Positions 16,708 to 45,172 of a DNA stretch of 64,000 nt are shown here, one piece after another. The notes below the pieces were generated by a model that was not told the origin of the DNA, did not search any database, and saw only the letters and a program-made list of their open reading frames with translations. A program made the translations under genes and the position numbers. The DNA comes from Desulfovibrionales bacterium (GTDB lineage: Bacteria > Desulfobacterota > Desulfovibrionia > Desulfovibrionales > JBKHAV01): the NCBI GenBank assembly GCA_046542715.1, contig JBKHAV010000001.1, positions 36,684-100,683 on the forward strand, in the 5' to 3' direction. Numbering within the stretch: the first letter of the stretch is position 1; every line of letters starts with the position of its first letter.

Positions 16708-17895
16708 CTATTTCCCCATGGGAAGTCTTCCGGAATGGCGGGCGTATGCCAGCGCCACCGTCCTGTACACCAGATGGCCCAGCTTGGACCAGGGCAGATA
16801 TGCTATCAGCATGAACACGGTTATGAGATGGACGTAGTAGGTAATGTAGGCTGCGGCAGGCAACTGGGCCAAACGCAGGACCTGAGCTCCGATGCCGGTA
16901 ATGGTCACGGCCCAGATCACCCCGAGCAGAAACCAGTCATAATAGCTGGAACCGTGTTTGGACGGATTCTGATTCATGCGCCGCTTGGTCAGGAAGGTCA
17001 AACCCACCAGGAGCAGGATGGAACCCACGTTGGCCAGGATCTTGACCGGGCTCCACAGCGGCATGGGCGTATGGCCGATGGGTTCGATAAAGGGGACCAC
17101 CTTGCCCCCCCAGTGCCCCAGGGCCACAATGGAGGTGACGATGAACAGGGCCACGAACCCGTAGAACAGCGCGAGGTGTCCCTGGAATTTTTTCTGGTCG
17201 CTCTCGCTTTCACCGCAATCTTTCCATTTTTTGTGGGTGGCGATCTCATCCTTGACCACCTCCAGGAACGCTTGGGCAAGTCCGGGACGCTTGTACCCGA
17301 TGACAAAGGTCTTAGGCTGGTCCTTGAAGGCGTTCAGGAGATTGGTGACCCCCTTGTAAAAGCAGAAGGCAACGAACAGCGCCACCAGGCCGAAGATCGG
17401 GTCAATGGTGAAATCGCCAGGGAACAGGGCTCCGTAAATGACTTTTCCGTCCACCAGCGGAAGCCAGGTTCCGAGTTGCCCGGCCCTGATGGCCCAGACA
17501 ATCAGAAAGAGCACGGCCGGGATGGCCACAAGAATGGGCAGGTACTTGATGGAACTCATCCAGGTGCCCACGATCTTCAGCGGGGCCAGGTTCTTGTAGG
17601 CCATGTTCCGCAGCGCTGCCAAAAGGTCCCCGGGGTTCGCCCCTCTGGGACACAGATCTGAGCAGGTGCCGCAGTTGTGGCACAGCCAGATATCGATATC
17701 ATTGACCAGCCGATCCTTCAGCCCCCATTGTGCCCAGACCATCTCTTTTCTGGGGTAGGGATTGGCGCCCGGTGAAAGCGGGCAGACAACACTGCAGGTT
17801 GCGCATTGATAACACTTTTTGAGGGACTCCCCCCCCACAGCCTGCAGTTCCTTGACAAAGCCAAGATCAGGCTCGATTCTTACTGCGTTAGCCAT
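16708..17895 (-). CDS. qmoC: Quinone-interacting membrane-bound oxidoreductase subunit QmoC
   Basis: Two ferredoxin-type motifs (CYQCATCSVVCP, CHNCGTCSDLCP) followed by a six-TM heme-b type domain. The ATG at 17895 follows GGAGGG. Confidence 0.9.
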   Translation of the reverse strand: MANAVRIEPDLGFVKELQAVGGESLKKCYQCATCSVVCPLSPGANPYPRKEMVWAQWGLKDRLVNDIDIWLCHNCGTCSDLCPRGANPGDLLAALRNMAYKNLAPLKIVGTWMSSIKYLPILVAIPAVLFLIVWAIRAGQLGTWLPLVDGKVIYGALFPGDFTIDPIFGLVALFVAFCFYKGVTNLLNAFKDQPKTFVIGYKRPGLAQAFLEVVKDEIATHKKWKDCGESESDQKKFQGHLALFYGFVALFIVTSIVALGHWGGKVVPFIEPIGHTPMPLWSPVKILANVGSILLLVGLTFLTKRRMNQNPSKHGSSYYDWFLLGVIWAVTITGIGAQVLRLAQLPAAAYITYYVHLITVFMLIAYLPWSKLGHLVYRTVALAYARHSGRLPMGK

Positions 17896-17909
17896 ATTCT
17901 CCAACCCTC

Positions 17910-20174
17910 CTAGTAGCCCTTGTAGGGGTTCGGACCCAGCGAAATGAGATGATCCATGAATTTATCGATCTTCTCCGAAACTGTATCGTACTCGTCGATG
18001 GCGACCTGGTCCTGGACAACGCGCTCTTTTTCAACGCCGAGTCGTTCCAGGGTCTCGCCCACATTGTTCATTCTGCGACTACAGAGTTCTGACCCCTTGA
18101 CGAAGTGGCACTGGTAGTCTTCACCGTACTTGCACCCGAGCAGCATCACGCCGTCCACACCCTTGCCCAGGGCATCGGCAATCCAGATGGTGTTCACGGA
18201 TCCAAGACAGCGGACCGGGATGAACCGGACGTATGGTGACCATTTCTTTCCCCGCAGAGCGGCCATGTCAAGCGCCGGATAGGCATCGTTCTCACAGGCC
18301 AGGATAATGGCCCTGGGACCGTCCTTTTCCATGTCGCCGGGAACCACGATCTGGCGGATCATCGATCCGATGATGTCGACACTGTAATTGTCAAAGGAGA
18401 TGACCCGCTCAGGGCAGGCACCCATGCAGGTTCCGCAGCGTCTGCACCGTGAAGGATTCGGCTGCGGCGTCCCCTTCTCGTCTTCGTCCAGAACGCCGAA
18501 GGGACACTCTTCCGTACACCGCTTGCACTGGGTGCAGCGGATGAAGTTGAACTTGGGATAGGTCATGTCACCTGACCGGGGATGAACCGACATGCCTCTG
18601 TTCACGGACTCGATGCACTGGATGGCTTTGAGTGCGGCGCCGGCAGCATCCTCTTCGGCCAGATGCAGGGACATGGGCTGGCGAACGCAACCCGCCGCGT
18701 AGATGCCGGTTCTGCGGGTCTCATACGGGAAGCAGATGTAGTTGGAATCTGCAAAGCCGTCAAAGAGATCCAGATCGGGAAGAGCAGGGCCCTGGCGGTA
18801 CTTGAGGTCCAAAATGGGCTTGAGGGCCGTGGTCGGCACCATGCCGGTCGGCAGGACCAGCATGTCGGTTTTGACCTCGATGTTCTCACCAAGCAGGGTG
18901 TCCTTGAAGGTGACCAGCACGCCGCCGTCATTGGCTTGTTCGATGTTCACCACCTCGCCCTTGCTCATCATGATGCCCGGATCGTTCTGGGCGGCCTTGT
19001 AGTACAGCTCGTTGATCCCGGGGACCATCATGTGCTCATAGATGATATACGCCTTTGCATCGGGATTGGCTTCCCGAACATAACCGGCCTGCTTCAGGGC
19101 GTTCAGGGATGCGGATTCCGAACTGTACGGGAGATGCCGGTAGGTCGTCTGCTTCTTGAAGACGAACTTTTCCTCTTCGCCCTCTTCACCTCCCTCAGCT
19201 TCTGCTTCTTCGGCCTCGGCTTCAGATTCCAAAGCAGCGGCTTCGTCTCTGGCGATCTCGTCAAGCATCTGTCCGGCTGTGAGCATGAACAGGACGCTCT
19301 CCGGCTTTTTACTGTCGCTCGGTCGCTTGATGCCTCCGTTTTTGGCCATCTCCTCGACTTCCAGGGTGGTGACCACGTTGGTCAGCGCGCCGTAGCCGAA
19401 GGGTTCCAGATACTTGCTGTCCTGCGGCACCCAACCGGTGGCCATGACAATGGCCCCGACCTGAACCGTCTCCTCTCCCGAGGAGGTCTTGACCGTGGCT
19501 TCGAACATACCGGGTGCCCCGGAGACCTTTTTCAAGGCAGCGCCGGTATATACCGTAATCTTCTCGTTGTTCTCCACCGCAGCGATCTTCTGGTCGACGC
19601 CGGTGTCCTGGACTCGGTCGTAAGGCGGACCAAGAGGGATGGTCTTGTACATCTTTGCAGCGAACCCGCCGAGCGCGGATTCTTTTTCGATCAGCACGAC
19701 CTCATACCCGGCCTTGGCCGCATGCAGAGCCGCAGTCAGTCCCGTCCACCCGCCGCCGAGGACCATGACCCGTTTCACACTCTCCAGCGCCTCTGGATCC
19801 GGAATGGTGGACTTTTGCAGCTTGGCAATGCCCATGTTCACGTAATCCTTGGCCACATTCATGATCTCGGCAGGATCTTTCACTCCAAGAACCGTATGCT
19901 CCCGGAGGTTGACCCGCTCCACCATGGTCGTTCCGAAGGTGTAAAGATTGACGTCCAGGCGGGGTGACGTTCCGGCAATGACCACACCATCCAGTCCGGC
20001 TTCTTCAATATCGGTCCGAATCGTGGACAAGCCGTCTTCGCTGGTCAGGTTTGCGTGGGTCTTCACCACCGGAGTGGCATCGGCCCACTTATTCTGTATC
20101 GCCTCGGACAATTCCTGCAAGTCGAGATCTCCGACGCTCGATTCGTCGAAATAGACACCGATTTTCTCGGCCAT
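17910..20174 (-). CDS. qmoB: QmoB (HdrA-like flavoprotein with Fe-S and MvhD-like domain)
   Basis: 754 aa. FAD motif VLGGGWTGLTAALHAAKAG, ferredoxin motifs CTQCKRCTEECP and CRRCGTCMGACP, and an MvhD-like C-terminus. Confidence 0.9.
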   Translation of the reverse strand: MAEKIGVYFDESSVGDLDLQELSEAIQNKWADATPVVKTHANLTSEDGLSTIRTDIEEAGLDGVVIAGTSPRLDVNLYTFGTTMVERVNLREHTVLGVKDPAEIMNVAKDYVNMGIAKLQKSTIPDPEALESVKRVMVLGGGWTGLTAALHAAKAGYEVVLIEKESALGGFAAKMYKTIPLGPPYDRVQDTGVDQKIAAVENNEKITVYTGAALKKVSGAPGMFEATVKTSSGEETVQVGAIVMATGWVPQDSKYLEPFGYGALTNVVTTLEVEEMAKNGGIKRPSDSKKPESVLFMLTAGQMLDEIARDEAAALESEAEAEEAEAEGGEEGEEEKFVFKKQTTYRHLPYSSESASLNALKQAGYVREANPDAKAYIIYEHMMVPGINELYYKAAQNDPGIMMSKGEVVNIEQANDGGVLVTFKDTLLGENIEVKTDMLVLPTGMVPTTALKPILDLKYRQGPALPDLDLFDGFADSNYICFPYETRRTGIYAAGCVRQPMSLHLAEEDAAGAALKAIQCIESVNRGMSVHPRSGDMTYPKFNFIRCTQCKRCTEECPFGVLDEDEKGTPQPNPSRCRRCGTCMGACPERVISFDNYSVDIIGSMIRQIVVPGDMEKDGPRAIILACENDAYPALDMAALRGKKWSPYVRFIPVRCLGSVNTIWIADALGKGVDGVMLLGCKYGEDYQCHFVKGSELCSRRMNNVGETLERLGVEKERVVQDQVAIDEYDTVSEKIDKFMDHLISLGPNPYKGY

Positions 20175-20178
20175 TGTA

Positions 20179-21417
20179 TTACCTCCCTCTCACCGTTTGA
20201 ATCGCTTTCAACGCAGCGCCGGTTGCGGACTGGGCTGACTTCATGACATCCAGGGGCTCTTTGGCGCAGCCGGCAACGAAAATGCCGGCGCTCTCGTTGT
20301 CCATGAGGAAATCGTTCTCGGTCTGGATCACTTCAAAGGGAAGTCCGCTCTGGGCAACACTCGGCTGCATGCCGGTGGCCAGCACGACCATGTCGAACCG
20401 CTCCTGGGATTTGTTGCCGCTGACCGCATCTTCCACGGTCACCCACACATCCCCGGTCTTGGGATCTTCTTCCGCTCCGGCGACTTTGCCTTTGACCGTT
20501 TTGATCTTGTCGTCGGCAAGGACCTTTTTCGCAAACTTGTCGTAGCGGCCGGGGGTGCGCAAGTCGATATAGTAGATGGTGACTTCGCTTTTGGGGTACT
20601 GCTCCCGCAGATAGACCGCCTGCTTGAGGGAAGCCATGCAGCAGATGTACGAGCAGAACGTGAGATGATTTTCGTCCCGGGAGCCGGCACACTGGACAAA
20701 GGCGACCTTTTTGGGCGCCTTCGAATCGGAAGGACGGAGAATTGCGCCGTTCGTGGGACCATTGGCCGAGGCCAACCGCTCCATCTGCATGTTGGAAATG
20801 CAGTTCGAAATGGTGCCCGCGCCCAGAGTGGTCAGGTTGGTCACATCGTACGGCTTCCACCCTGTGGCGATGATGATGCTGCCGACGTCAAGAGTAATGG
20901 ACTTGGGCTGCTCGTCCAGGTTGATGTTCGGATTGTCGGCTAGAACGCTTTTTTCATCCTCGGTGATGTTTTCCGCATCGAGGACGAACCGGCTCGGGTA
21001 GGAGAACGGAGCATCCATGTACAAAGCCTTGCGCACGCCCATCCCGAAATCAAAATCCTTGGGAACTTCCTGGGAAAGTTCCGCGGCCAGCCCGTTCATG
21101 TCGATGCTGCCCGGGCCGGTGTGCCGAGGATTGATCTGAACCGTGACTTCGTAATTTCCGGCTGTTCCGGACACTGCGGTCACCTCGGCCATGGTCAGGA
21201 TCTTCACCTTGGGGTTTTTCTTGATCCGCTGGAACTGGATCTCCAGTCCGCAGGAGGGAGGACACAGTTTGGGGAAATACTTATTGAGCTGCGCCACGCG
21301 TCCACCCAGGAAGGGCTGTTTTTCTACAAGATACACCTCGTAGCCCACTTCAGCGGCTTCAAGGGCGGCCGTAATTCCGGCAAAACCGCCCCCGACCACA
21401 AGTATACTTTCAGACAT
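20179..21417 (-). CDS. qmoA: QmoA (HdrA-like flavoprotein)
   Basis: 412 aa, MSESILVVGGGFAGITAALEAAEVGYEVYLVEK...FPKLCPPSCGLE. Confidence 0.9.
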   Translation of the reverse strand: MSESILVVGGGFAGITAALEAAEVGYEVYLVEKQPFLGGRVAQLNKYFPKLCPPSCGLEIQFQRIKKNPKVKILTMAEVTAVSGTAGNYEVTVQINPRHTGPGSIDMNGLAAELSQEVPKDFDFGMGVRKALYMDAPFSYPSRFVLDAENITEDEKSVLADNPNINLDEQPKSITLDVGSIIIATGWKPYDVTNLTTLGAGTISNCISNMQMERLASANGPTNGAILRPSDSKAPKKVAFVQCAGSRDENHLTFCSYICCMASLKQAVYLREQYPKSEVTIYYIDLRTPGRYDKFAKKVLADDKIKTVKGKVAGAEEDPKTGDVWVTVEDAVSGNKSQERFDMVVLATGMQPSVAQSGLPFEVIQTENDFLMDNESAGIFVAGCAKEPLDVMKSAQSATGAALKAIQTVRGR

Positions 21418-21457
21418 TTGAAATCCTCCCTAAAGTTTTTGATCAGGACCACGTGAA

Positions 21458-21514
21458 TAAAATGGTCTAAGTCTGAACTGCAGACCTCTCTGCAGTGCAG
21501 ACTTAGACCATTTT
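21458..21514 (-). other. Long composite hairpin in the aprA-qmoA spacer
   Basis: 17-bp arms AAAATGGTCTAAGTCTG / CAGACTTAGACCATTTT enclose an inner 7-bp stem CTGCAGA/TCTGCAG. Confidence 0.7.
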
Positions 21515-21547
21515 AAAAACGGCTGCGGGCGTTTACGCCCGCAGCCG
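21515..21547 (-). terminator. Intra-operon rho-independent terminator/attenuator after aprA
   Basis: The minus strand reads CGGCTGCGGGCG-taaa-CGCCCGCAGCCG followed by TTTTT, 12 nt after the aprA stop. Confidence 0.7.
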
Positions 21548-21559
21548 TAGTGATCCTTC

Positions 21560-23551
21560 CTAGTCAGGAATGATCTGGATGTAGGGTTTCTTGAAGATAG
21601 CGGTCTCACCCTTTTCCGGATCGTATTTGGAGTTGACGAAGCACTTCCACTTGGAATCATCCAAGCCCATGAAGTCTCCACGGTAGTAGAAGCCGGGGTA
21701 GCGGGACTCCTCACGGAAGTGGATGTGCTGCATGTGCAGCCGCACGGTCCACAGCCGGTGGAACTGCTCCCAGCAACGCATGAGTTCATGCAGGTCACGG
21801 GCGGCCAGCTTCTTGGAGTCCTCTTCCAGCATGTCGAGCAGCTTGAAGCCGGTCTCGAGCAGCGCCTTGGAAGTGGTGTAGTAGGTGCTGACGCCTCCGC
21901 CGTACTCGTCCGTCGCCTTGACCAGCCGCATCATGAAGTTCTTGGGGCTGATGAAGTTCGGGTTGATGACGGGGTCGGTGGAGATGGCCTTGCCCTCTTC
22001 GTAGTTGTACCAGGGCTGGTAGATCTCTTTCTTGAGCTCGTCAGCGGACTGCTTCAGCGTGGGCTTGAAATCCTTGTGGTCCACGCACCAGCGCACCATC
22101 TGCTTGCCGCAGATACGACCCTCGGCGTGGGAGCCGGAGGAGAACTTGTGACCGGAAGCGCCAACGCCGTCAGCGCAGGTGAACAGGCCGTTGACCGTAG
22201 TCATGCGGTTGTACACTTTGCCGTTGTCGGCCTTGATCTTGTACTCGTCAGGTACCCAGTCCAGATCCGGACCACTGACCCAGATGCCGCAGCAACCGGA
22301 GTGGGATCCGAGCAGGTAGGGCTCGGTGGGCATGATCTCGGAGCCGGTTTCCTCGGGCGCGATGTTCATGGCGGCCCACAGGTTGGCCTGCCCGACGCAC
22401 ATGTCGAGGAAGTCTTCCCATGCCTCGGACTCGAGGTGCTTCTGCTCCTGGGGAGAGAGCTCCTTGAAGGTGGTCTGCAGAGCGGTGGCGGTGTCCATGT
22501 AGATGGGGCCGCGACCTTCGCGCATTTCCCTGAGCATCATGTGGTTGCGCAGGCAGGTGGGAATGATGTTGCCCTTGGCGTAACCGCGATCCTCGTAAGG
22601 CTTCAACATGGCGCGGTTGGTTGCGCAGTAGTCTTCACCCTTGTAGTTCGTGGCCTTGGCCTTGAAGAGCAGGAACCAGGCGCCGACCGGGCCGTATCCG
22701 TCCTTGAAGCGGGCGGGGACGAACCGGTTCTCCATCATGGTCATCTCAGCGCCGACCTGGGCACACATGGTGTAGGTGGAACCGGCGTTCCATACGGGAT
22801 ACCAGGCGCGACCCATGCCCTCACCGGTGGACCGGGGGCGGTACACGTTCACAGCGCCGCCGCAGGCGACCAGAGCGGTGTTGCACTTGAAGATGTAAAC
22901 CTTGTTCTCGCGGGTGGAGAAGCCAACGGCACCGGCGATACGGTTGGGCTCGTTGGCATCCAGGAGCATCTTCACGATGAAGATGCGCTCCAGGTAACGG
23001 TCTTCGCCCAGGGCGTTCTTGGCCGCTTCGGCCACGATCACCTTGTAGGACTCACCGTTGATCATCATCTGCCAGCGACCGGAACGGACAGGCTGTGCGC
23101 CGGAGCGCAGGGACAGGCCGGCGGCCTTGGCCTGGGCGCCGTCGAGGTTCTTGCCGTCCTTCTTGACCCAGCAGGGAAGTCCCCACTCCTCAAAGAGGTG
23201 CACGGAATCGTCGACATGGGTTCCCAGGTCGAAGATGAGGTCTTCGCGGACGAGGCCCATCAGGTCGGTGCGGACCATGCGGACGTAGTCGTCCGGATCG
23301 TTTTCACCGAGATAGGTGTTGATGGCGGACAGACCCTGAGCCACAGCACCGGAGCGCTCCAGAGCAGCTTTGTCCACCAGCATGATCTTGAGGTCGCCGC
23401 CGACCTTGTCGGCCCAGCGGACAGCTTCGAAAGCTGCACCGCAGGTGCCCATGCCGCCACCCACCATGAGGATGTCAACGTCCTGTTCAACTATTTCTGG
23501 CTCAGCCAGAGCGAGCCCTTTGGGCTCTTCTTTCATGGGAATCCGAGGCAT
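21560..23551 (-). CDS. aprA: Adenylylsulfate (APS) reductase alpha subunit
   Basis: 663 aa. N-terminus MPRIPMKEEPKGLALAEPEIVEQDVDILMVGGGMGTCGAA, a flavoprotein of the fumarate reductase family. It sits next to aprB. Confidence 0.95.
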   Translation of the reverse strand: MPRIPMKEEPKGLALAEPEIVEQDVDILMVGGGMGTCGAAFEAVRWADKVGGDLKIMLVDKAALERSGAVAQGLSAINTYLGENDPDDYVRMVRTDLMGLVREDLIFDLGTHVDDSVHLFEEWGLPCWVKKDGKNLDGAQAKAAGLSLRSGAQPVRSGRWQMMINGESYKVIVAEAAKNALGEDRYLERIFIVKMLLDANEPNRIAGAVGFSTRENKVYIFKCNTALVACGGAVNVYRPRSTGEGMGRAWYPVWNAGSTYTMCAQVGAEMTMMENRFVPARFKDGYGPVGAWFLLFKAKATNYKGEDYCATNRAMLKPYEDRGYAKGNIIPTCLRNHMMLREMREGRGPIYMDTATALQTTFKELSPQEQKHLESEAWEDFLDMCVGQANLWAAMNIAPEETGSEIMPTEPYLLGSHSGCCGIWVSGPDLDWVPDEYKIKADNGKVYNRMTTVNGLFTCADGVGASGHKFSSGSHAEGRICGKQMVRWCVDHKDFKPTLKQSADELKKEIYQPWYNYEEGKAISTDPVINPNFISPKNFMMRLVKATDEYGGGVSTYYTTSKALLETGFKLLDMLEEDSKKLAARDLHELMRCWEQFHRLWTVRLHMQHIHFREESRYPGFYYRGDFMGLDDSKWKCFVNSKYDPEKGETAIFKKPYIQIIPD

Positions 23552-23599
23552 AATTTCCCCTCCTTACTCTCAATAATTATCGGTTGATTCGAGATTCAA

Positions 23600-24106
23600 C
23601 TACCGGTTTGCGCCTTCTTCACAAGGAATATCGGCCCAGCACTGCGTCTTGTCGGTTTCAGTCATGTCGAACTTCTTGTTCAGTGCTTCCTTGGGAGTCT
23701 TGAGCTCGGTTTCGGTGAAGAGGAGCTCATTGTCCAGATCGCTGGGCTCGGGCTTGCCTTCGAAAGGCTTGATGGAACCTTCAGCAGTGGTCCGAATGGG
23801 GAACTTGAACCGCTTCACATTGCCGTTGCGGAACTTGACAGTCCACATGATGTCCTCTGCGGAGCGCAGCGGAATGCTGGTCCCGCCCATGGGGGCGAAG
23901 TCAGCGTAAGGACGGGCTTCGATTGCGCCCTGGGGGCAGATCTTTACGCAGGAGTAACACTCCCAGCATGCCTCGGGCTCCTGGTTGAAAGCCTTCATCT
24001 CTTCGGGGTCCAAAATCATCAGGTCATTGGGGCAGATGTACATGCAAGCGGTCCGATCACCACCCTTGCAGCCATCGCATTTGTCAGGATTGACAAAGGT
24101 CGGCAT
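23600..24106 (-). CDS. aprB: Adenylylsulfate (APS) reductase beta subunit
   Basis: 168 aa. MPTFVNPDKCDGCKGGDRTACMYICPNDLM...CWECYSCVKICPQGAI carries two [4Fe-4S] motifs. Confidence 0.95.
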   Translation of the reverse strand: MPTFVNPDKCDGCKGGDRTACMYICPNDLMILDPEEMKAFNQEPEACWECYSCVKICPQGAIEARPYADFAPMGGTSIPLRSAEDIMWTVKFRNGNVKRFKFPIRTTAEGSIKPFEGKPEPSDLDNELLFTETELKTPKEALNKKFDMTETDKTQCWADIPCEEGANR

Positions 24107-24632: not shown

Positions 24633-25919
24633 ATGAGTAAACTGGTTCCCCCCCATGGCGGTAAAGGCCTTGTCGAATGCCTGCTCAAAGGCGCCGACCT
24701 GGAAGCCGAAAAGAAAAAGGCCCAGGGCCTGAAGAAGATCACGATTTCCAATCGGGTCAAAGGCGATGTCATCATGCTCGGCATCGGCGGATTCTCCCCC
24801 CTGAACGGATTCATGGGCAAGGAAGACTGGAAGGGCGTCTGTGAAAAGTTCCTCTTGGCGGACGGCACCTTCTGGCCTGTGCCGGTGGTCTGCGACACCG
24901 ATGACGAAGACGTCAAGGTCGGCGACGAAATCGCCCTGGCCGACAAGAATGGCGACATTTACGCCACAATGAAGGTTGAGGAAAAGTACGCCCTGACCCA
25001 TGGCGAGAAAAAATGGGAATGCGAAATGGTCTTCAAGGGCGACGGCGAAGACTCCAAGAACTTCTGGGACGTAGCACTGGAAGATCATCCCGGCGTCCAG
25101 ATGGTCATGAGCCAGGGCAAGTACAACCTGGCCGGCCCGGTCAAGGTCCTCTCCGAGGGCGACTACCGCGAGAAGTTTCCCGGTGTGTACATGACCCCGG
25201 CCGAGATCCGCGCTGAGATGGAAAAGCGCGGCTGGTCCAAAGTTGCCGCCCTGCAGCTCAGGAATCCCATGCACCGCTCCCACGAGTACCTGGCCAAGAT
25301 CGCGGCCGAGGTATGCGACGGCGTGGTCATCCACTCCCTGATCGGCAACCTGAAACCCGGCGACATCCCGGCTGACGTGCGCATCAAGTGCATTCAGACC
25401 CTGATCGACGGCTACTTCGTCAATGACAACGTGATCAACTCCGGGTACCCCCTGGACATGCGCTATGCCGGTCCCCGCGAGGCCCTGCTCCACGCCACCT
25501 TCCGGCAGAACTACGGCATCAGCCACATGCTGATCGGCCGTGATCATGCCGGCGTGGGTGACTTCTACACCCTGTTCGAGGCCCAGGAGATTTTTGACCG
25601 CATCCCCTACAGCAAGCTCGAAGATGCCTGCGAGGATCCCGGCAAGGCGCTCCTGACCGAGCCCATGAAGATCGACTGGACCTTCTACTGCTACAAGTGC
25701 GACGGCATGGCCTCCATGCGCACCTGCCCGCACACCAAGGAAGACCGGGTCATCCTGTCCGGTACCAAGCTGCGTAAGGCTCTGTCCGACGGCGCCCCCG
25801 TGCCCGACCATTTCGGTCGCGACGAGGTTCTGGCACTTCTGCGCGAATACTACGAAGGTCTGACCGACAAGGTCGAGATCAAGATGCAGAAGGCCGCCAG
25901 CGGTCAGGACATGAAATAA
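24633..25919 (+). CDS. sat: Sulfate adenylyltransferase (ATP sulfurylase)
   Basis: 428 aa. Contains [11 protein letters not shown], the HxxH-type motif IGRDHAGVG and a GAGGAG RBS. Confidence 0.95.
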
Positions 25920-25944
25920 GTCTTCATTTTCTTCTGCACCTGCA

Positions 25945-25975
25945 AGGGAGATGCTTCGGCATCTCCCTTTTTTTG
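25945..25975 (+). terminator. Rho-independent terminator after sat
   Basis: AGGGAGATGC-ttcg-GCATCTCCCT followed by TTTTTTT. Confidence 0.85.
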
Positions 25976-26057: not shown

Positions 26058-27692
26058 ATGACGGACACAAGAATGCCCAATACAAAAGAAAAGCCCCATC
26101 CACCCCGGGGATCCATTTATGACGAGATCAAAGAGCTGGATAAAAAGATTACCGGACTGCTCGGCCGCCGGACCGAACTCCTGGCAAAAGCCGCCTCCGG
26201 ACGAAGAAGCAGAAAGGGAAAACTCGCTGATCCCCGGCAGGAAAAAGAACTCTGGGCGATATGGAAGGATGTTCGCGAAAGCCAGAACCTCGACAATGCC
26301 ATCTGGGAACGAATCTTCAGTCTGACCAACTCCCTGGCCTATGCCCGTACAGAACAGACACGCCCGGAAAAAGGGTTCAACCTCTTTCCCAAACCCGCCC
26401 CCCTGCAACTCACGTTTGCCGGTCCGCCCCACCTTCCGGCCACCAGGGGGGGACTCGCCCTGGCCGCAATGCTCGGAGGGTCCCTGCGTATTCCCGGGGC
26501 GGTGCTCAATGATCCCCTGATTGAACTTGCCAAACTCCTCAACCAGGTCGAAGGGAAAGTGTCCTGGGATTCTGAGGGAATCACTTCAGAGTCCGACGGG
26601 GCTCTTGCTTTTGACAATCGGACCATCTTCTGTGGCCAGGACCCTTTCAACCTCTTTCTCGCCCTGGCCATGACACTGCCCGTGTTCGGCATTGTCAAGC
26701 TCACCGGCGGGACCAGTTTGAGAAATTTTGACCTTAGCGTGTTGCAACGGTTTTTGCCGGCAATCGGAGCACGGATGGTCCATCTGGATCCACACAGCGC
26801 CGGCCTTCCGGTCCGCATCGAATCCAGCGGCGTTCTTCCGGATGAGGTTCACCTCCCCGATTGGGTCCCCCCCTCTTTTGTGCATGCCATGCTCATCGGA
26901 TGGACCGGGCACCGGAAGAAGACCCGTTTTTTTTGGGACGGTTCCCGTGACGAGGAACTTTTTCCCGGCTGGCTCAAGGACCTGCTCTCCAGGTTCGGGT
27001 CCCGAATGCACACCAGGGGCGGACACCTGGAGATTTCCGGCTTTGATCTTCACGCTCCAAAACTCCTGAGCCTGCCCATGGATCCTGTTGCGACCGGGTA
27101 TGCTCTGGGACTTCCCGCCGGTCGGGGAGGTTTTGTCAAAGCTGAGGGGATTTGGCCCGATACAGACGAAGGCGCTAAAATCCTGGAAAAGCTGCGGGCC
27201 TTTCTCACGGTTGAAGCCTCCCCGGAGGGTATCCAAGCCCGCTTCAGGAACATGGTCGCCTCCAACAGCGTTGCATTCACTCCCTTGAGCTTTGCCCTGG
27301 CCGTGATTTCAGGCCGGGAAACCCTGCTCGAAATCACAGGTGACGACCAGGATCTTGAATTCGCTCTTGAAACCGGGGAAGTTCTTGGACTCGATCTCGC
27401 CCGGCTTCCTGGAGAGTTCAAGGTAGGCCGCACTTCCCGATCACAGCCGGCAGGCACGCCCCCGACGATTCACGCTCCCACTCCGGAGTGGGCCATGGCC
27501 CTGGCGCTCATTTCGACGTTCCGTCCGGGCTTCACCTTGTCCAACCCGGGAATCGTATCCAGCCTCTGGCCTCAGTTCTGGAATATTTACAACGAGACCC
27601 CGCTGATCCCCGGCGGGACGCAAAAACGAGAGACCAACGATACACCCCATGTCCCAAAACAACGTAAACGGATCGAATCCAAAGACCATTGA
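26058..27692 (+). CDS. Chorismate-mutase-like N-terminal helix fused to a degenerate EPSP-synthase (AroA) fold
   Basis: 544 aa. Residues ~20-95 fit the CM_2 pattern (IYDEIKELDKKITGLLGRRTELLAKAA...DPRQEKELW). The rest aligns by eye to AroA, with LPGSKS replaced by HLPATR, GNAGTAMR by GQDPFNLF, and DHRMAM by TPEWAM. Confidence 0.6.
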   Translation: MTDTRMPNTKEKPHPPRGSIYDEIKELDKKITGLLGRRTELLAKAASGRRSRKGKLADPRQEKELWAIWKDVRESQNLDNAIWERIFSLTNSLAYARTEQTRPEKGFNLFPKPAPLQLTFAGPPHLPATRGGLALAAMLGGSLRIPGAVLNDPLIELAKLLNQVEGKVSWDSEGITSESDGALAFDNRTIFCGQDPFNLFLALAMTLPVFGIVKLTGGTSLRNFDLSVLQRFLPAIGARMVHLDPHSAGLPVRIESSGVLPDEVHLPDWVPPSFVHAMLIGWTGHRKKTRFFWDGSRDEELFPGWLKDLLSRFGSRMHTRGGHLEISGFDLHAPKLLSLPMDPVATGYALGLPAGRGGFVKAEGIWPDTDEGAKILEKLRAFLTVEASPEGIQARFRNMVASNSVAFTPLSFALAVISGRETLLEITGDDQDLEFALETGEVLGLDLARLPGEFKVGRTSRSQPAGTPPTIHAPTPEWAMALALISTFRPGFTLSNPGIVSSLWPQFWNIYNETPLIPGGTQKRETNDTPHVPKQRKRIESKDH

Positions 27693-27900
27693 GCAATTAG
27701 AGGCTGAAATCGCCCTTCTCCTTGAGGAGGAAAAGCGGATCGAACAACAGGTCAGGCGCCTGCGCAGTGAAGAGGACACGGCACGCGGAATCGTGCACGC
27801 CGGGGAGATCTTCAAGCTCCAGCAGCAAAAACTGCAGGTGAAGGTCCAAGTGCAGTATCTGCAGAACATGGTTAAACGGCTTGTGTACGCAACTAAGTGA
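27649..27900 (+). CDS. Small coiled-coil hypothetical protein
   Basis: 83 aa with heptad-rich sequence (IEQLEAEIALLLEEEKRIEQQVRRLR). It overlaps the upstream gene by 44 nt and has no clear SD. Confidence 0.4.
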   Translation: MSQNNVNGSNPKTIEQLEAEIALLLEEEKRIEQQVRRLRSEEDTARGIVHAGEIFKLQQQKLQVKVQVQYLQNMVKRLVYATK

Positions 27901-27917: not shown

Positions 27918-29384
27918 ATGGTGAAATTTTCCGTTGCCCTCCTGGGAAGTGAAAAAGCGGTAGCCCGCACCCACAGGATACTCACCAGATCCGGAGGATC
28001 TCAGGCCTCCTCCCTGGTCCCTGTCGCCCTGGTCGTCACCGGCGATCAGACCGTGGATCATGATCTTCCCGTGTACAGGGACTGGCGCAGCATGCTCGAC
28101 AACCACACAGTGGACATTCTGTATTCTTTCGAAAACGAGCAGGAGATAAAGGCTGACTTGCGGAGGAATCTTCCTTTGGAGATCGATCTTATCGAGTACC
28201 ACCCTGGGCAAATCCTGAATGCATCCATTCTCAACCAGCAGGTCTTTGTCAAAAAGTCGGAAAATCGCCAGCAGGTTTTGGAAAGCTTTTTGGAAGCACT
28301 CCCCGTCGCCGCCGTCATCTTCGACCGCTTTGGTCACGTGCTGTTCTGGAACGAAGCCTGCTCCAAGCTGACCCATTCCCCTGTGAGCCGGGCTGTTCCC
28401 AGGGAAAGCAAGACCTCGCCCTTTGGTTCTGATGCCCCCATGCTCGGCCAACTCATCCTGGAGACACTGGATCCCAAATCCCTGCTCACGCACTTCGAGG
28501 GACCGGATATCGAGATCAACCCTCTCCACGAAGGCGTCCAGGTTCTTGGATATTTCAGCATCTACGGCTCTCTTCAAGGATATTACCAGATTATTGCCCA
28601 ACGCATTTTCTCAGGAGACGAACTCATTGGTTCGGTGCAGCTCATTCAGGACCTCACCTCCTGGCATCTGCTTCAGGAACAGCTCAAAAATCAGCAGGAA
28701 CAGCTCAAGACCATCATCAGCCATCTGCCCTTTCCGCTTATCCACACCGACGAGCAGGGGCGCGTTCTCTTTGCCAACCAGGCGGCCCGACAATCGGCCC
28801 TGTTTGCGCGGCTGAAGGGAAAAGACACGGCAGAGCCCAAAAATTTCCTCCTTTCCTTTCCTGAACTGAAACGGGAATTCACTCCTCATTTCTTGAGCGA
28901 CATCACCTCCACACCTCCGGAGTTCACACCGCATCTGTCCAAGACTCTGAACATCCACTTGAGCGATCAGGAGTGGGCAGTGACCTGCCTCGCGCTTCCG
29001 GTTCAGGGCAATTCATGGAATCTGATCTGGATTCTGAACAACATCAGTTCCAAAGAGGAGCAGGACAGGCTCAATGCCGCCGTGGCCATTGCCGGAGCCA
29101 TCAGCCACGAGCTTTCCCAGCCGCTGACCGCCATCATCAATTCCGCCCAGTTGCTTGGCAATACCGGATTGGACGACCGGGATCGGATCAAGAGACATGT
29201 TCAGATCATTACTGCAGAAGGAGAGCGGGTTTTGGGCCTGTATCAGAAGCTGCACAACATTTCTCGATTCAAGCTCACGAATTATCTGGACATGCAGATA
29301 TTCGACCTCGAAGAGTCCACCGATCTGAATCTGACCATCCCCCCTTCAACAAGGAGTGAAGACAATGGCCATGAATCTGACTGA
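27918..29384 (+). CDS. PAS-domain sensor with a HisKA (DHp) domain but no HATPase domain
   Basis: 488 aa. The H-box AGAISHELSQPLTAIINSAQLL lies ~85 aa from the C-terminus. No N/G1/G2 boxes follow it. PAS-like segments lie upstream. Confidence 0.7.
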   Translation: MVKFSVALLGSEKAVARTHRILTRSGGSQASSLVPVALVVTGDQTVDHDLPVYRDWRSMLDNHTVDILYSFENEQEIKADLRRNLPLEIDLIEYHPGQILNASILNQQVFVKKSENRQQVLESFLEALPVAAVIFDRFGHVLFWNEACSKLTHSPVSRAVPRESKTSPFGSDAPMLGQLILETLDPKSLLTHFEGPDIEINPLHEGVQVLGYFSIYGSLQGYYQIIAQRIFSGDELIGSVQLIQDLTSWHLLQEQLKNQQEQLKTIISHLPFPLIHTDEQGRVLFANQAARQSALFARLKGKDTAEPKNFLLSFPELKREFTPHFLSDITSTPPEFTPHLSKTLNIHLSDQEWAVTCLALPVQGNSWNLIWILNNISSKEEQDRLNAAVAIAGAISHELSQPLTAIINSAQLLGNTGLDDRDRIKRHVQIITAEGERVLGLYQKLHNISRFKLTNYLDMQIFDLEESTDLNLTIPPSTRSEDNGHESD

Positions 29385-31287
29385 AAAGATCATCACATCC
29401 CACGCCTTGAGCGGAAAGCTCAGCCCCGGCGAAAAAATAGACCTCAGGATCGATCAGACGTTGACCCAGGACGCTACAGGCACCATGGCCTGTCTCCAGT
29501 TCGAGGCGCTCGGCAGGGACCGGGTCCAGACCGAACTTTCCGTCAGCTACGTGGATCACAACACCCTGCAGATGGGGTTTCGCAACCCCGACGACCACCG
29601 CTATCTCCGTTCCCTGGCAAAACGATACGGGATCGTGTTCTCTCCTCCTGGAACCGGGATCTGCCATCAGCTCCACCTGGAAAACTTTGCCAAACCGGGA
29701 ACGACCCTGATCGGTTCCGACAGCCACACCCCGACGGCAGGCGGCGTGGGCTCCTTGGCCATGGGCGCCGGCGGGCTTTCCGTGGCCCTGGCCATGGCCG
29801 GTGAGCCCTACACCATTACCATGCCGGCAGTGGTTCGGGTCTGGCTTGAGGGTGAACTGACCGGTTGGGCCACGGCCAAGGACGTCATCTTGCACCTGCT
29901 CGGCACGCTCACTGTCAAGGGTGGGGTGGGCAAGGTCATGGAGTACGCTGGTCCCGGGGTAAAATCCCTGACCGTGCCCGAACGGGCCATCATCACCAAC
30001 ATGGGTGCGGAACTCGGCGCCACGACATCGATTTTTCCAAGCGATGAACAGACCCGCGAGTTTTTCAGCGCCATGGGCAGGGAACAGGACTATGTCCCCC
30101 TGGCTGCCGACGAAAATGCCTCCTACGCAGACGAGATCCGCATCGACCTGAGTTCTCTGGTTCCCCTGGCTGCCCGGCCGCACATGCCGGACCAGGTCGT
30201 CCCGGTGGCGGAACTTGCCGGCCTCAAGGTCGACCAGGTGGCCATCGGGTCGTGCACGAATTCCTCCTACGCAGACATGAAGAGTGTAGCCATGATCCTG
30301 GCGGGAAAACAGATCGCCCCGCTCACCGACCTGCTCATCTCTCCGGGGTCCAAGCAGGTGCTCCAGCTCCTGGCCCGCGAGGATCTGATCGTCCCCCTCC
30401 TGGATGCCGGGGCCAGACTGCTCGAATGCTCCTGCGGACCCTGCATCGGCATGGGGGGCTCTCCAGTGAGCACAGGAGTCAGTGCCCGGACCTTTAATCG
30501 GAATTTCGAGGGCCGTTCCGGGACCCAGGATGCCCAGGTCTATCTGGTCAGCCCGGTCACTGCAGCCCAGGCGGCACTTGCAGGGGAGTTCACCGACCCG
30601 TCCTCCTGGGGTGAACCGTTTCCCAAACCGGTTCTGCCCGCTTCCGTCCCGGACATCCGGCACCTGTTCGTCTATCCTGCCGAGAATGATGCAGACACTG
30701 TGATCTCCCGGGGACCAAACATCGTCCCTCTGGAACAGTTCGCCCCTCTTCCTGAGGTTCTTGACCTCCCCGTGCTGATCAAGCTGGGGGACAATGTCAC
30801 CACGGATCACATTCTTCCGGGCGGGGCTCAGGTTACGGCTCTGCGCTCCAATGTCCCTGCTATCTCCGAGCACGTTTTCAGCCGGGTGGACACGGAATTT
30901 GTAGCCAGAGCCAGAGCGGCCGGCGAAGGCGTCATCCTGGGCGGCGACAATTACGGCCAAGGCTCGAGCCGGGAGCACGCCGCACTGGCCCCGAGGCATC
31001 TCGGCGTGCGCGCTGTCATCAGCAAGTCTTTTGCCCGGATCCACAGGGACAATTTGGTCAATTTCGGCATTCTCCCCCTGACCCTGGTGGATCCTTCGGT
31101 TTACGACCGGCTGGAACAGGGCATGAGGGTCCAACTCCCGGCCGGCGCGATCCGCTCCAAGCAGCCGGTAACAATAACGGCCGAGTCTGGTGTCTCCTTT
31201 GAGGTGACCAACGATTTGACGGAACTTGAACTGGGAATTATTCATGCGGGCGGACTGCTCAATTTTGTCCGCGAGAAAAACTCGTAA
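29365..31287 (+). CDS. Aconitate hydratase (short, ~640-aa type)
   Basis: Aconitase-family Fe-S ligand motifs IGSCTNSSYADM and CGPCIGMG, plus the swivel-domain motif GDNYGQGSSREHAA. An AAGGAG RBS precedes the ATG at 29365. Confidence 0.88.
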   Translation: MAMNLTEKIITSHALSGKLSPGEKIDLRIDQTLTQDATGTMACLQFEALGRDRVQTELSVSYVDHNTLQMGFRNPDDHRYLRSLAKRYGIVFSPPGTGICHQLHLENFAKPGTTLIGSDSHTPTAGGVGSLAMGAGGLSVALAMAGEPYTITMPAVVRVWLEGELTGWATAKDVILHLLGTLTVKGGVGKVMEYAGPGVKSLTVPERAIITNMGAELGATTSIFPSDEQTREFFSAMGREQDYVPLAADENASYADEIRIDLSSLVPLAARPHMPDQVVPVAELAGLKVDQVAIGSCTNSSYADMKSVAMILAGKQIAPLTDLLISPGSKQVLQLLAREDLIVPLLDAGARLLECSCGPCIGMGGSPVSTGVSARTFNRNFEGRSGTQDAQVYLVSPVTAAQAALAGEFTDPSSWGEPFPKPVLPASVPDIRHLFVYPAENDADTVISRGPNIVPLEQFAPLPEVLDLPVLIKLGDNVTTDHILPGGAQVTALRSNVPAISEHVFSRVDTEFVARARAAGEGVILGGDNYGQGSSREHAALAPRHLGVRAVISKSFARIHRDNLVNFGILPLTLVDPSVYDRLEQGMRVQLPAGAIRSKQPVTITAESGVSFEVTNDLTELELGIIHAGGLLNFVREKNS

Positions 31288-31340
31288 CAACAACCAAGCG
31301 GGACGCGTAAGCGCGTCCTGATCAATCCATCGGAGTGACA

Positions 31341-33227
31341 ATGCTCGATGTTATTCGTCAAAATGCCCAATCCTGGATGGTGAAAGTGCTCTTTGCGCTC
31401 ATTGTCATCGTGTTTGTCTTCTGGGGTGTTGGAAGCTTTCGCAGCGACCCTTCCAAAGTTGTGGCCACGGTGAACGGTTCCAATATTCCCGCCCGGGAAT
31501 TCATGCGGGCGTATGAACGCACACTTGAGGCCATGCGGGATGAAAATCCCGAGCTCTCGACAGCGGACATCCAGCGGTTCAGTGTCAAGCAGAGGGTTTT
31601 GGACCAGATGATCAACTCCATGCTTCTGAAGCAGGTCGCTGCTGAATGGAATATCACGGTCTCCCCTGCCGAACTCACCGCAGCCATCCGAGAAATCCCG
31701 GCATTTCATAACGAGGACAGGGGGTTTGACCCGAACGTCTACGTCTCCGTTCTGCAAGCCAACCAACTCAGCCCCGGACAATTCGAGACGGATTTCCAGC
31801 AGAATATGCTCATGGAAAAGATCAGTGAGTATGTCGAGCTGCCTGCGGCTATCAGTGAGGAGCAGGCCAGAGACTTCTTCGGCTTCGCCCGGGAAGAAGT
31901 GCGCATGGAGTACGCCCTCTTTTCTCTGGACGAGTACACGGACCGGATCACGCCCACCCAGGAACAGATCAAAACCTATTACGACCAGAATCCCGACCAG
32001 TTTGCCGTGCCGGAGCGGATCCGCATCAGCTATCTGACCTTCTCGCCTTCCTCACTGGCCAGACCCGAAGCAGTTTCCCCGGCAGAGGTCGAGAGTTATT
32101 ATGAGCAGAACAAGGAGCTGTTTCGCCGGGAAGAGGAGGTCAAGGCCAGGCACATTCTGATCCAGCTCGACCGGGATGCATCCGAGAAGGAAGCCGAGAC
32201 CGCGCTGGACAAGATCACCAAGCTGAAACTGCAAATCGAAGGCGGCGCCGATTTTGCCGAGGTCGCCAGGGAACATTCCGAGGGACCCAGCAACGTTCAA
32301 GGGGGCGATCTGGGCTGGTTCGGCCGGGGACAGATGGTCAGCGAGTTCGAAGAGGTTGCCTTTTCGCTCCAGACGGACAAGGTGAGCGATCCTGTGCGGA
32401 CCGATTTCGGCTACCACCTCATCCTGGTGGAGGAACGTCGCACCGAAGGCATTCAGAGCCTGGAAGAGGCAGAGGAGCGGATCAGAACGAGGATCGCTGA
32501 AGACAAGGCTTCAGACCGGGTAGCCGATCTCCTTGACCAGGTCCTGGAAAGCGTTGTTTCCGGTCAGAGTCTGGAAACCGCTGCTCAGGCCGCGGACCTT
32601 GAGGTGAGCCGGACCGGATATTTCAATCGAAACGACGGCCCCAGGGAACTGCAACTGCCCTCCGAGACCCTGCAAAACCTTTTCGAGCTTCCCGAAAATA
32701 CAGCCCTGGAGGCCCCGGTACTTCTCGACGAAGGGTATCTGCTGGCCCAGAAGTTGGATACAAAGCCTCGCACCATCCGTCCCCTCGAGGAGGTCACGGC
32801 CAGGATCAGGACCATCTTGAAACAGGACGGTGCCCGGGCCCTGGCCAGAGAAGAGGCCGCAAAAGCCCTTGCTGCACTGAAGTCGGGGGAAACACCCCAG
32901 GAAATTACAGACCAGCTGACGATCAGCGAACCGTTCGGCCGCACCGGTGTTGTCCCGGGTTTGGGCCTCAATCCTGAACTCATCAGTGAACTCTTCGCTG
33001 CTCCCGAGGGCACCTGGCTGAACAACACCTATGAGGTCGATGCCGGATACGTGACCGCCCGGCTTTCAGAGCGGATCGCTCCTTCTGAAGAGGAATGGGA
33101 GCAGCAAAAATCCTTCTGGATTGCAAACCTGCGCCAGGTCAGAGCTCAGGAGCTTTTCAGCTCTTTTATGGAAAACCTGCGCAACAAGGCTGACATTGTC
33201 CTCGTCAATCCGGACATTCTCTCCTGA
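31341..33227 (+). CDS. PpiD-like periplasmic chaperone / parvulin-type peptidyl-prolyl isomerase
   Basis: N-terminal TM anchor, SurA_N-like region, and a parvulin domain (ARHILIQ...GGDLGWFGRGQMVSEFEEVAFSL). Confidence 0.8.
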   Translation: MLDVIRQNAQSWMVKVLFALIVIVFVFWGVGSFRSDPSKVVATVNGSNIPAREFMRAYERTLEAMRDENPELSTADIQRFSVKQRVLDQMINSMLLKQVAAEWNITVSPAELTAAIREIPAFHNEDRGFDPNVYVSVLQANQLSPGQFETDFQQNMLMEKISEYVELPAAISEEQARDFFGFAREEVRMEYALFSLDEYTDRITPTQEQIKTYYDQNPDQFAVPERIRISYLTFSPSSLARPEAVSPAEVESYYEQNKELFRREEEVKARHILIQLDRDASEKEAETALDKITKLKLQIEGGADFAEVAREHSEGPSNVQGGDLGWFGRGQMVSEFEEVAFSLQTDKVSDPVRTDFGYHLILVEERRTEGIQSLEEAEERIRTRIAEDKASDRVADLLDQVLESVVSGQSLETAAQAADLEVSRTGYFNRNDGPRELQLPSETLQNLFELPENTALEAPVLLDEGYLLAQKLDTKPRTIRPLEEVTARIRTILKQDGARALAREEAAKALAALKSGETPQEITDQLTISEPFGRTGVVPGLGLNPELISELFAAPEGTWLNNTYEVDAGYVTARLSERIAPSEEEWEQQKSFWIANLRQVRAQELFSSFMENLRNKADIVLVNPDILS

Positions 33228-33250
33228 CACACACGACACCGCATAACGTA

Positions 33251-33284
33251 GAGCCCCGCCGAACAACCGGTGGGGCTTTTTTTG
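33251..33284 (+). terminator. Rho-independent terminator after the ppiD-like gene
   Basis: AGCCCCGCC-gaacaacc-GGTGGGGCT followed by TTTTTTT. Confidence 0.75.
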
Positions 33285-44235: not shown

Positions 44236-44322
44236 TCTCCAGTCTGCGGTTTGGGATCGATTGAATATCAGGCGCGAACTGGGCTATACTCCTTTTACGA
44301 TGTGATGCAAAAGGAGGATCCC

Positions 44323-44727
44323 ATGCGATACGAGAATTTTCTCGAAAAGGTGCAGGAACGCACCGAACTTGCCCCGGACCAGGCCGAAACAGTTGTCAGG
44401 GCAACGCTTGAAACCCTTGGTGAGCGGCTTCATTCCACAGAGCGCGACCTGCTCGGAGCCCAGCTTCCCAAAGAAATGCAGGGGATGCTCGCCCGTCGGA
44501 AACAGACGGACCGCTACAATCTTGAGGAGTTCTACAATCGTGTCAGCGCCCGGGCTGATCTTGGATATCCCGATGCCGTAAACTCTGCCCGGGCTGTTGC
44601 CATGGTTTTGCAGGAGGCGGTCTCTGAAGGCGAAATACGCAACATGCTCTCCAGACTTCCGGCCGAGTACGAGGAACTCTTCGGCAGAGCATTTCAGGAG
44701 ACTCTCTCTCCCTCCAGCGAATACTGA
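44323..44727 (+). CDS. DUF2267 domain protein
   Basis: AAGGAGG RBS. YENFLEKVQERTELAPDQAETVVRATLETLGERL...EEFYNRV matches the tandem DUF2267 pattern. Confidence 0.7.
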   Translation: MRYENFLEKVQERTELAPDQAETVVRATLETLGERLHSTERDLLGAQLPKEMQGMLARRKQTDRYNLEEFYNRVSARADLGYPDAVNSARAVAMVLQEAVSEGEIRNMLSRLPAEYEELFGRAFQETLSPSSEY

Positions 44728-44907
44728 CTGGAAACCCGGGAAACCGAGGAGAAGTCTGCCAGAGCTTCTTCTGCTCTTCACCCGGTCTTCTGAATGTCTC
44801 CCGGAGCCCCGGCGATTTCTCCACCCACTTTCTTTCCTCCCCATATGTGGTAGACTGCTGTAAAAAATGGCTGAATTACCGCTGAAGATGCCAACGCGGG
44901 AGGGATT

Positions 44908-45132
44908 ATGCAACGCATTACGGTTTATCTCCTCGGAGTGATCACGGCTGTCGGGATCATGCTGCTCATGGGCGCAGCTCCCCAGGGGCTCGTAAACAAG
45001 TACCAGCTGGCCCAGGACAAGGACACTGCCTTTGTTCTGGACACCACTTCCGGAGTGGTCAAGATGGTCTGGCAGAGGGATGCCGGGGCGCAGCTGGGTG
45101 TTCCCTTTGAAGAAATGGAAAACCAGCCCTGA
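44908..45132 (+). CDS. Small membrane-anchored hypothetical protein
   Basis: 74 aa with one N-terminal TM and a GGGAGGG RBS. Confidence 0.5.
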   Translation: MQRITVYLLGVITAVGIMLLMGAAPQGLVNKYQLAQDKDTAFVLDTTSGVVKMVWQRDAGAQLGVPFEEMENQP

Positions 45133-45172
45133 TAGCGATGAGCCATACCGTCTCTGAGAACAGGAAAGAACC

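Follow-up and report, generated by a model that had tools for sequence, protein, structure and literature searches.

The locus described here raises the question of what is encoded by a gene that directly follows sat (ATP sulfurylase) in a Desulfovibrionales genome, and whose product resembles two shikimate-pathway enzymes at once: a chorismate mutase (CM) at its N-terminus and an EPSP (5-enolpyruvylshikimate-3-phosphate) synthase, AroA, along the rest of its length. The stretch analysed (hereafter the window: 64 kb of contig JBKHAV010000001.1, to which all coordinates given without another locus name refer) had received a first-pass annotation in which this gene was read as a degenerate enzyme. 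We consider, with an even measure of confidence, that the fusion protein is a non-catalytic pseudoenzyme, which joins two shikimate-pathway folds and acts as a scaffold or regulatory subunit together with a small partner protein. The predicted reading frame does exist on the forward strand, and its parts are laid out as follows (aa, amino acids).

26058-27692, + strand: gene for the CM-like/EPSP synthase-like fusion, 544 aa, with an alternative start at 26073
26118-26360, + strand: AroQ/CM_2-like three-helix domain, aa 21-101, placed by Pfam, by the profile alignment to 1ecm and by the helices of the AlphaFold2 (AF2) model
26400-27599, + strand: body with the enolpyruvyl-transferase (EPSP synthase) fold, aa 115-514, placed by the profile match to the PDB and by Foldseek
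27657-27674, + strand: C-terminal basic motif KQRKRI, aa 534-539, after a disordered polar linker, in a tail of low predicted local distance difference test score (pLDDT)

The identical protein of a Desulfovibrionales metagenome-assembled genome (MAG) is deposited at NCBI (P0001 in our numbering of family members) under the name 'chorismate mutase' and with 539 aa, a length that fits a start at the second methionine (26073).

The EPSP synthase-like nature of the body could not be recognised from the single sequence: the window protein alone gave no match to PF00275 at E<=1 in Pfam (the gathering score was not reached), its EPSP synthase part found nothing in Pfam or NCBIfam, and a single-sequence phmmer search against the PDB returned noise only. 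As these direct searches gave no match, a family profile was needed. PF00275 was reached by four of the five closest relatives of the fusion protein (by some relatives only weakly), and a profile made of these five matched AroA structures of the PDB over their full length (Vibrio cholerae 3nvs, E=1.4e-12; Escherichia coli 1g6s, E=7e-10), the match being to AroA only and not to MurA. Furthermore, an AF2 model of the fusion protein, built with a 64-sequence alignment (mean pLDDT 90.3, predicted TM-score 0.83), found EPSP synthases as its best PDB matches in Foldseek, with target-normalised TM-scores (TMt) of 0.76-0.80 (7tm4 0.80, 1g6s 0.79, 2o0b 0.78), root-mean-square deviations of 3.4-4 Å and 15-18% identity, while MurA structures scored below them (TMt 0.70-0.74). 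The model lies nearer to ligand-closed EPSP synthase (1g6s, 0.79) than to open plant structures (0.61-0.63), an observation that we do not use as support. Taken together, the profile and the model bear out the earlier by-eye alignment of the body with AroA along its whole length, and confirm the EPSP synthase fold.

The extent of the family became apparent when 1.84 billion representatives (clusters at 50% identity) were searched exhaustively with a profile: at least 219 family clusters were recovered at E<1e-30, the listed matches being nearly all of 530-640 aa and covering both domains, and full-length homologues were seen at 24-41% identity. Word-index searches for homologues had returned 5 proteins with the window protein and 9 with a 50-sequence alignment, and a scan of the genome collection with a narrow alignment gave 4 loci; it was the exhaustive search that found the real family. 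All members named below phylum level belong to Desulfovibrionales (one MAG is labelled just Thermodesulfobacteriota) and they are spread order-wide, over at least 10 genera (Desulfoplanes, Desulfohalobium, Desulfovulcanus, Desulfobaculum, Megalodesulfovibrio, Nitratidesulfovibrio, and further Oleidesulfovibrio, Bilophila, Humidesulfovibrio, Desulfocurvibacter and Desulfovibrio spp.). Since the architecture is shared by at least 219 clusters, the fusion gene is not decaying and is maintained by selection.

In order to compare active sites, 136 family representatives were aligned to E. coli AroA and 21 of its residues were followed (K22, S23, R27, N94, G96, T97, R100, R124, S169, S170, Q171, S197, Y200, D313, N336, K340, E341, R344, H385, R386 and K411). 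Not one of the 21 is conserved, either in the window protein or across the 136 representatives, and no intact catalytic residue had thus escaped the earlier by-eye alignment; the usual substitutes are Leu, Phe, Tyr, Pro, Ala or Asp/Glu. The three motif replacements that had been read from the window sequence hold at the level of alignment columns: HLPATR (aa 125-130) occupies the position of LPGSKS, GQDPFNLF (aa 193-200) aligns column for column with GNAGTAMR, and TPEWAM (aa 475-480) aligns with DHRMAM. Moreover, the 18 AroA-site columns that can be aligned carry 1.44 bits, as compared to 1.83 bits for the average column (the bottom ~4% of random column sets), and none of them ranks among the 40 best-conserved columns of the family. 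Judged by column conservation, the AroA cleft is no longer under special constraint, i.e. the constraint on it is relaxed. The residues that are conserved both in the family and in AroA (G93, G117, L-G-A 136-138, P150, R152, D242, D/N405-P406 and P414) are kept for structural reasons, and a further set is conserved in a family-specific manner (R239 and E255 in 136/136, K/R222 in 129/136, R253 in 117/136, together with K159, N162, P409, W478 and W508). The conserved blocks of the protein span aa 152-170, 217-258 and 494-512.

A pseudoenzyme is operationally a homologue of an enzyme whose catalytic residues are gone and which stays under selection; on the evidence of the alignments the fusion protein fits this definition, with full-length homologues in at least 219 clusters and 0/21 AroA site residues conserved, as the first-pass annotation had proposed. 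On the other hand, we find no support for its further suggestion of a ligand-binding scaffold that senses a phospho- or sulfo-metabolite through the AroA cleft, given that this cleft is unconserved and has lost its anion-binding residues (the positions being mostly hydrophobic, Pro or acidic).

The N-terminal domain had likewise been assigned to the AroQ/CM_2 pattern by eye, and it matches PF01817 (CM_2) above the cutoff (aa 21-89, E=3.1e-8, 34.1 bits vs a gathering cutoff of 27), its AF2 helices (20-51, 59-76 and 80-101) forming the three-helix AroQ topology. A CM-domain profile made from 29 N-terminal domains and searched against the PDB matched 2gtv, 2d8d, 1ecm and the DAH7P synthase-CM fusions 5j6f, 5gmu and 3nvt (E=6e-5 to 9e-3; E=1.6e-4 for E. 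coli CM, 1ecm). The complete active site of the E. coli enzyme (EcCM: R11', R28, K39, D48, R51, E52, S84 and Q88) is not found in the family. No other residues of the domain are conserved as strongly as the equivalents of R28 (R38, in 135/136 representatives) and E52 (E62, in 134/136); the K39 position holds Arg in 56% of the representatives and the D48 position D/E in 69%; the R11' position holds Arg in just 13%, the R51 position has no basic residue among its six commonest residues, S84 is kept in 13% and Q88 is lost. At the level of residue conservation, half of the CM pocket is thus kept under the strongest constraint of the domain and half is lost. Judging by published mutagenesis of EcCM, a domain that lacks R11 and Q88 should no longer catalyse the reaction efficiently; the pocket could still bind a carboxylate ligand.

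Outside the folded parts, 114 of the 136 members end in [KR]RRRI after a disordered polar linker (KQRKRI being the window version). The possibility that this C-terminus merely reflects a Shine-Dalgarno sequence of the following small open reading frame (ORF) was rejected: the codons of the window (CGT AAA CGG) are not purine-rich or Shine-Dalgarno-like and lie downstream (3') of the ATG of the small ORF, for which reasons we take the motif as a feature of the protein. A minority of members (P0058, P0075, P0096, P0148, P0060 and P0209, Bilophila included) are also extended at the N-terminus by ~140-480 aa, which the window protein is not. These extensions consist of R/D/G/P-rich tandem repeats (e.g. 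RPDRGERPDRG, DRERRPYGQ), have no Pfam domain and are probably disordered polyampholyte or RGG-like tails. The idea that the long members are fusions with Sat (a 'Rosetta stone') was discarded, as the extensions are low-complexity R/D/G repeats without a Pfam domain. The folded body has an excess of acidic residues, with a median net charge of -9.

The genomic surroundings of the fusion gene were compared over 13 independent loci, all within Desulfovibrionales (numbered with the prefix L where they must be told apart), and in the window they comprise the features below.

24633-25919, + strand: sat, ATP sulfurylase (PUA_2 and ATP-sulfurylase domains, E=5.8e-83), the upstream neighbour, outside the unit
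25944-25969, + strand: intrinsic terminator of sat, with an 11-bp stem, a TTCG loop and a T7 tail
27649-27900, + strand: coiled-coil partner ORF, 83 aa, overlapping the fusion gene by 44 nt
27918-29384, + strand: PAS-PAS-HisKA protein without HATPase_c (Pfam PAS_8, PAS, HisKA), a subclade-specific accessory
29356-31287, + strand: aconitase of the ~640-aa type, a frequent downstream neighbour
31335-33227, + strand: PpiD-like periplasmic chaperone, the last gene of the putative unit
33250-33279, + strand: intrinsic terminator after ppiD, with a 12-bp stem

The small ORF is the most constant neighbour of the fusion gene and the sole constant one across the 13 loci: it directly follows or overlaps the fusion gene in 12 of them, and is missing just in a short Bilophila contig. 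Its family (83-100 aa; further examples lie at L001 11547-11825 and L009 9853-10119) is a helix-turn-helix-like coiled coil with the conserved core LRxxEDxxxGIxxAQEIFxLQQDKLRL, for which searches of Pfam and the PDB gave generic coiled-coil noise and no family. The overlap of the two genes makes their translational coupling likely.

The gene adjoins the sulfate-activation genes, as had been stated, sat lying directly upstream at a distance of 138 nt. Because the terminator at 25944-25969 intervenes, the fusion gene heads a probable operon of its own and lies outside the sat transcript, sat itself being apparently monocistronic. The co-transcription with sat that the adjacency might have implied is also at odds with Nitratidesulfovibrio and Oleidesulfovibrio, where the neighbour is aprBA and not sat. 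Two strong terminators bracket five genes (fusion gene, small ORF, PAS-HisKA, aconitase and ppiD), among which the PAS-HisKA gene follows the small ORF after a 17-nt gap, the aconitase gene overlaps its predecessor and ppiD follows after 47 nt. The tight cluster with a coiled-coil ORF that had been noted in the window is therefore real, while the ATPase-less sensor is a feature of one subclade and not a general one: it occurs only in the window, L001 and L004 (the two orthologues showing 50-58% identity and likewise having no ATPase domain) and is absent from eight other lineages. The Pfam scan of the window copy found PAS, PAS and HisKA domains and no HATPase_c, and hence not the domain set of a sensor kinase; with its normal H-box (SHELSQPL), it may be a phosphotransfer or phosphatase-only module. 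In one lineage the small partner and aconitase are separated by an ORF of 383 aa (L008 2238-3389, +), and since it sits at the PAS-HisKA point, the block tolerates insertions there. No riboswitch or leader was found near the fusion gene with Rfam.

At a larger scale, sat and/or aprBA-qmoABC adjoin the gene pair in 8 of the 13 loci, and aconitase-ppiD follow in most of the remaining ones; in Nitratidesulfovibrio and Oleidesulfovibrio the pair, with a small ORF of ~88 aa, is divergent from aprB, with neither sat nor aconitase adjoining. The window holds a complete aprBA-qmoABC set (16708-24106, - strand) divergent from sat. The window shares the gene order qmoCBA-aprAB <-> sat-fusion-small-acn-ppiD with L001 and L014, while L011 shows it rearranged; it looks like the arrangement ancestral to Desulfovibrionales. 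In one Desulfovibrionaceae chromosome (L006 5941-7754, +), an AAA_21/AAA_15 ATPase and DUF4276 pair, i.e. a typical anti-phage-type module, lies directly upstream of the fusion gene, at the usual position of sat. Elsewhere in the window, we recorded a 93-nt tRNA match (1570-1662, + strand; Rfam, 51.9 bits), long enough for a class II tRNA (Ser, Leu or Sec), and a 410-aa ORF (44284-45516, - strand) with no Pfam match at E<=1e-5.

As a working mechanism, we propose that the fusion protein would form a complex with the small partner translated alongside it, in which it would play the part of a scaffold or regulatory subunit. By analogy with canonical AroQ domains, which form intertwined dimers, the AroQ-like domain probably serves as a dimerisation module. 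Any small-molecule pocket that remains would be the AroQ-like one, centred on R38/E62; if a ligand exists, the conservation pattern makes this pocket a better candidate than the AroA cleft. The basic C-terminal tail and, where present, the long R/D/G-rich N-termini may be docking elements for an acidic partner or polyanion. As for the target process, chromosomal position weakly suggests either the sulfate-activation/APS-reduction module (sat, aprBA-qmoABC) or the aconitase-ppiD genes. A narrower proposal would make the two proteins a Desulfovibrionales-specific accessory or regulatory complex of the Sat, AprBA and QmoABC module, recycled from a dead shikimate scaffold. It is suggested by the siting of the pair beside sat and/or aprBA in 8 of 13 lineages, the model genera Nitratidesulfovibrio and Oleidesulfovibrio among them; we rate it as quite unlikely.

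Several points weigh against the scaffold interpretation itself. Close to the former cleft two basic residues are left, R130 (68% conserved, one position off R27) and K/R222 (95% conserved, two positions off R124), which could still bind an anion, so that some residual anion binding is conceivable. The invariant R239/E255 pair, instead of being a structural salt bridge, could form a new catalytic site. The complex with the small-ORF product is one that we infer from gene overlap and co-occurrence only, and the synteny, all of it within one order, may reflect shared ancestry rather than shared function.

Among the alternatives, a metabolite sensor comes first, and we regard it as somewhat unlikely. 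Here the AroQ-like pocket, or a remodelled cleft, would bind a chorismate- or prephenate-like compound or another carboxylate and relay the signal, within the window subclade to the adjacent ATPase-less PAS-HisKA protein, in parallel with the regulatory CM domains of DAH7P synthases. The strong conservation of the R28 and E52 equivalents speaks for this reading, CM domains fused to DAH7P synthase occur among the PDB matches (5j6f, 5gmu, 3nvt, 2d8d), and in the window, L001 and L004 the second gene downstream, past the small ORF, encodes PAS-HisKA. It is countered by the loss of half of the chorismate-binding residues (R11, R51, S84, Q88), by the relaxed constraint on the AroA cleft columns, and by the absence of PAS-HisKA from most lineages, so that this protein cannot be the general output.

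The invariant charged residues outside the old site (R239 and E255 in all representatives, R253 in 117/136 and K/R222 in 129/136) bring in a second alternative, in our judgement unlikely, namely a neofunctionalised enzyme in which a new site (e.g. the R239/E255/R253/K222 block or the R38/E62 pocket) would catalyse a Desulfovibrionales-specific reaction. The strong overall conservation of the family is in line with it. Against this stands the fact that most of the highly conserved positions are also structural in AroA (G93, G117, G137, P150, R152, D242, P406, P414); moreover, a cofactor motif is absent, and both the tails and the coiled-coil partner have the look of interaction modules, less so of enzyme components.

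A third alternative is built on the tails, the R/D/G-rich extensions and the basic C-terminus tethering the folded body to RNA or another polyanion. Such an RNA- or polyanion-associated scaffold would draw on the ~140-480 aa RD/RGG-like repeats of P0058, P0075, P0096, P0148 and P0209 and on the conserved KRRRI tail, and the enolpyruvyl-transferase fold does belong to one superfamily with that of the RNA 3'-phosphate cyclase (RtcA). We consider it very unlikely, given that most members, the window protein included, have no such extension, that no RNA-binding domain was detected and that the folded body is net acidic. Lastly, a working bifunctional chorismate mutase/EPSP synthase, for which the source annotations naming one or both activities would speak, or a decaying pseudogene, is hardly credible, as the AroA catalytic residues are all absent family-wide, related genomes have a canonical aroA and a canonical CM (PMC5701242, PMC4162548), and an intact ORF conserved in at least 219 clusters excludes decay. 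The canonical enzymes of those genomes lie in aro/trp clusters, i.e. Ddes_0334-0337 in another Desulfovibrio (aroA being Ddes_0335, canonical enzymes Ddes_0335/0336; PMC5701242) and DESAMv2_21549-21552 (aroA being DESAMv2_21551, canonical enzymes DESAMv2_21550-21551; PMC4162548), and DVU0462 is a chorismate mutase (bioRxiv 10.1101/2024.09.27.615472). Within the 64-kb window and the fetched loci of relatives, no canonical aroA was found.

When set against known systems, the non-catalytic pseudoenzyme that we favour shares with EPSP synthase (AroA, EC 2.5.1.19, PF00275) the two-lobed enolpyruvyl-transferase fold over its full length and the structural motifs of AroA (G93, G117, LGA, P150, R152, D242, DP 405-406, P414), and differs from it by the replacement of all 21 substrate and catalytic residues (K22, R27, R124, D313, E341, R344, R386, K411 and the rest), by the added CM-like N-terminal domain, basic C-terminal tail and small partner gene, and by a gene position outside aro clusters. 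MurA has the same fold and is a poorer match than EPSP synthase (TMt 0.70-0.74), with no sequence-profile match. With the AroQ chorismate mutases (PF01817) the family has in common the three-helix topology and the practically invariant R28/E52 equivalents, whereas R11', R51, S84 and Q88 are missing and K39 is usually Arg. In the DAH7P synthase-CM proteins (5j6f, 5gmu, 3nvt) a CM domain is likewise fused to a second shikimate-pathway fold, the difference being that their CM partner is an active enzyme and that of the present family an inactive EPSP synthase fold. Bacterial pseudoenzymes generally are dead paralogues of enzymes with a regulatory or scaffolding role; as in them, an enzyme homologue devoid of catalytic residues is here conserved under selection. 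The folds and the pseudoenzyme concept were thus already known; what appears to be undescribed is the family, its architecture (a CM-like domain, a dead enolpyruvyl-transferase and a basic tail), the small partner and the siting by sulfate-reduction genes. Our literature search found no publication on a CM-like/EPSP synthase-like fusion family and no described pseudoenzyme of the enolpyruvyl-transferase fold.

Database entries for the family (P0001, P0022, P0077, P0192, P0228 and others) are named 'chorismate mutase', '3-phosphoshikimate 1-carboxyvinyltransferase' or 'hypothetical protein', with 'chorismate mutase/EPSP synthase' as one further source name. We argue that, throughout the family, both enzyme names are very likely incorrect, and that, through this misannotation, a dead enzyme may be counted as functional when the metabolism of sulfate reducers is reconstructed. 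If the interpretation is true, this would be, as far as our literature search showed, the first described pseudoenzyme with the enolpyruvyl-transferase fold, and an unusual case of two folds from a single pathway that became fused and thereafter lost their catalytic function. Orthologues appear to be present in genera for which genetic tools exist (Nitratidesulfovibrio, Oleidesulfovibrio), which would make the gene pair directly tractable; it is conserved across an entire order of sulfate and sulfite reducers with environmental and medical relevance and, in most genomes, it lies beside core energy genes.

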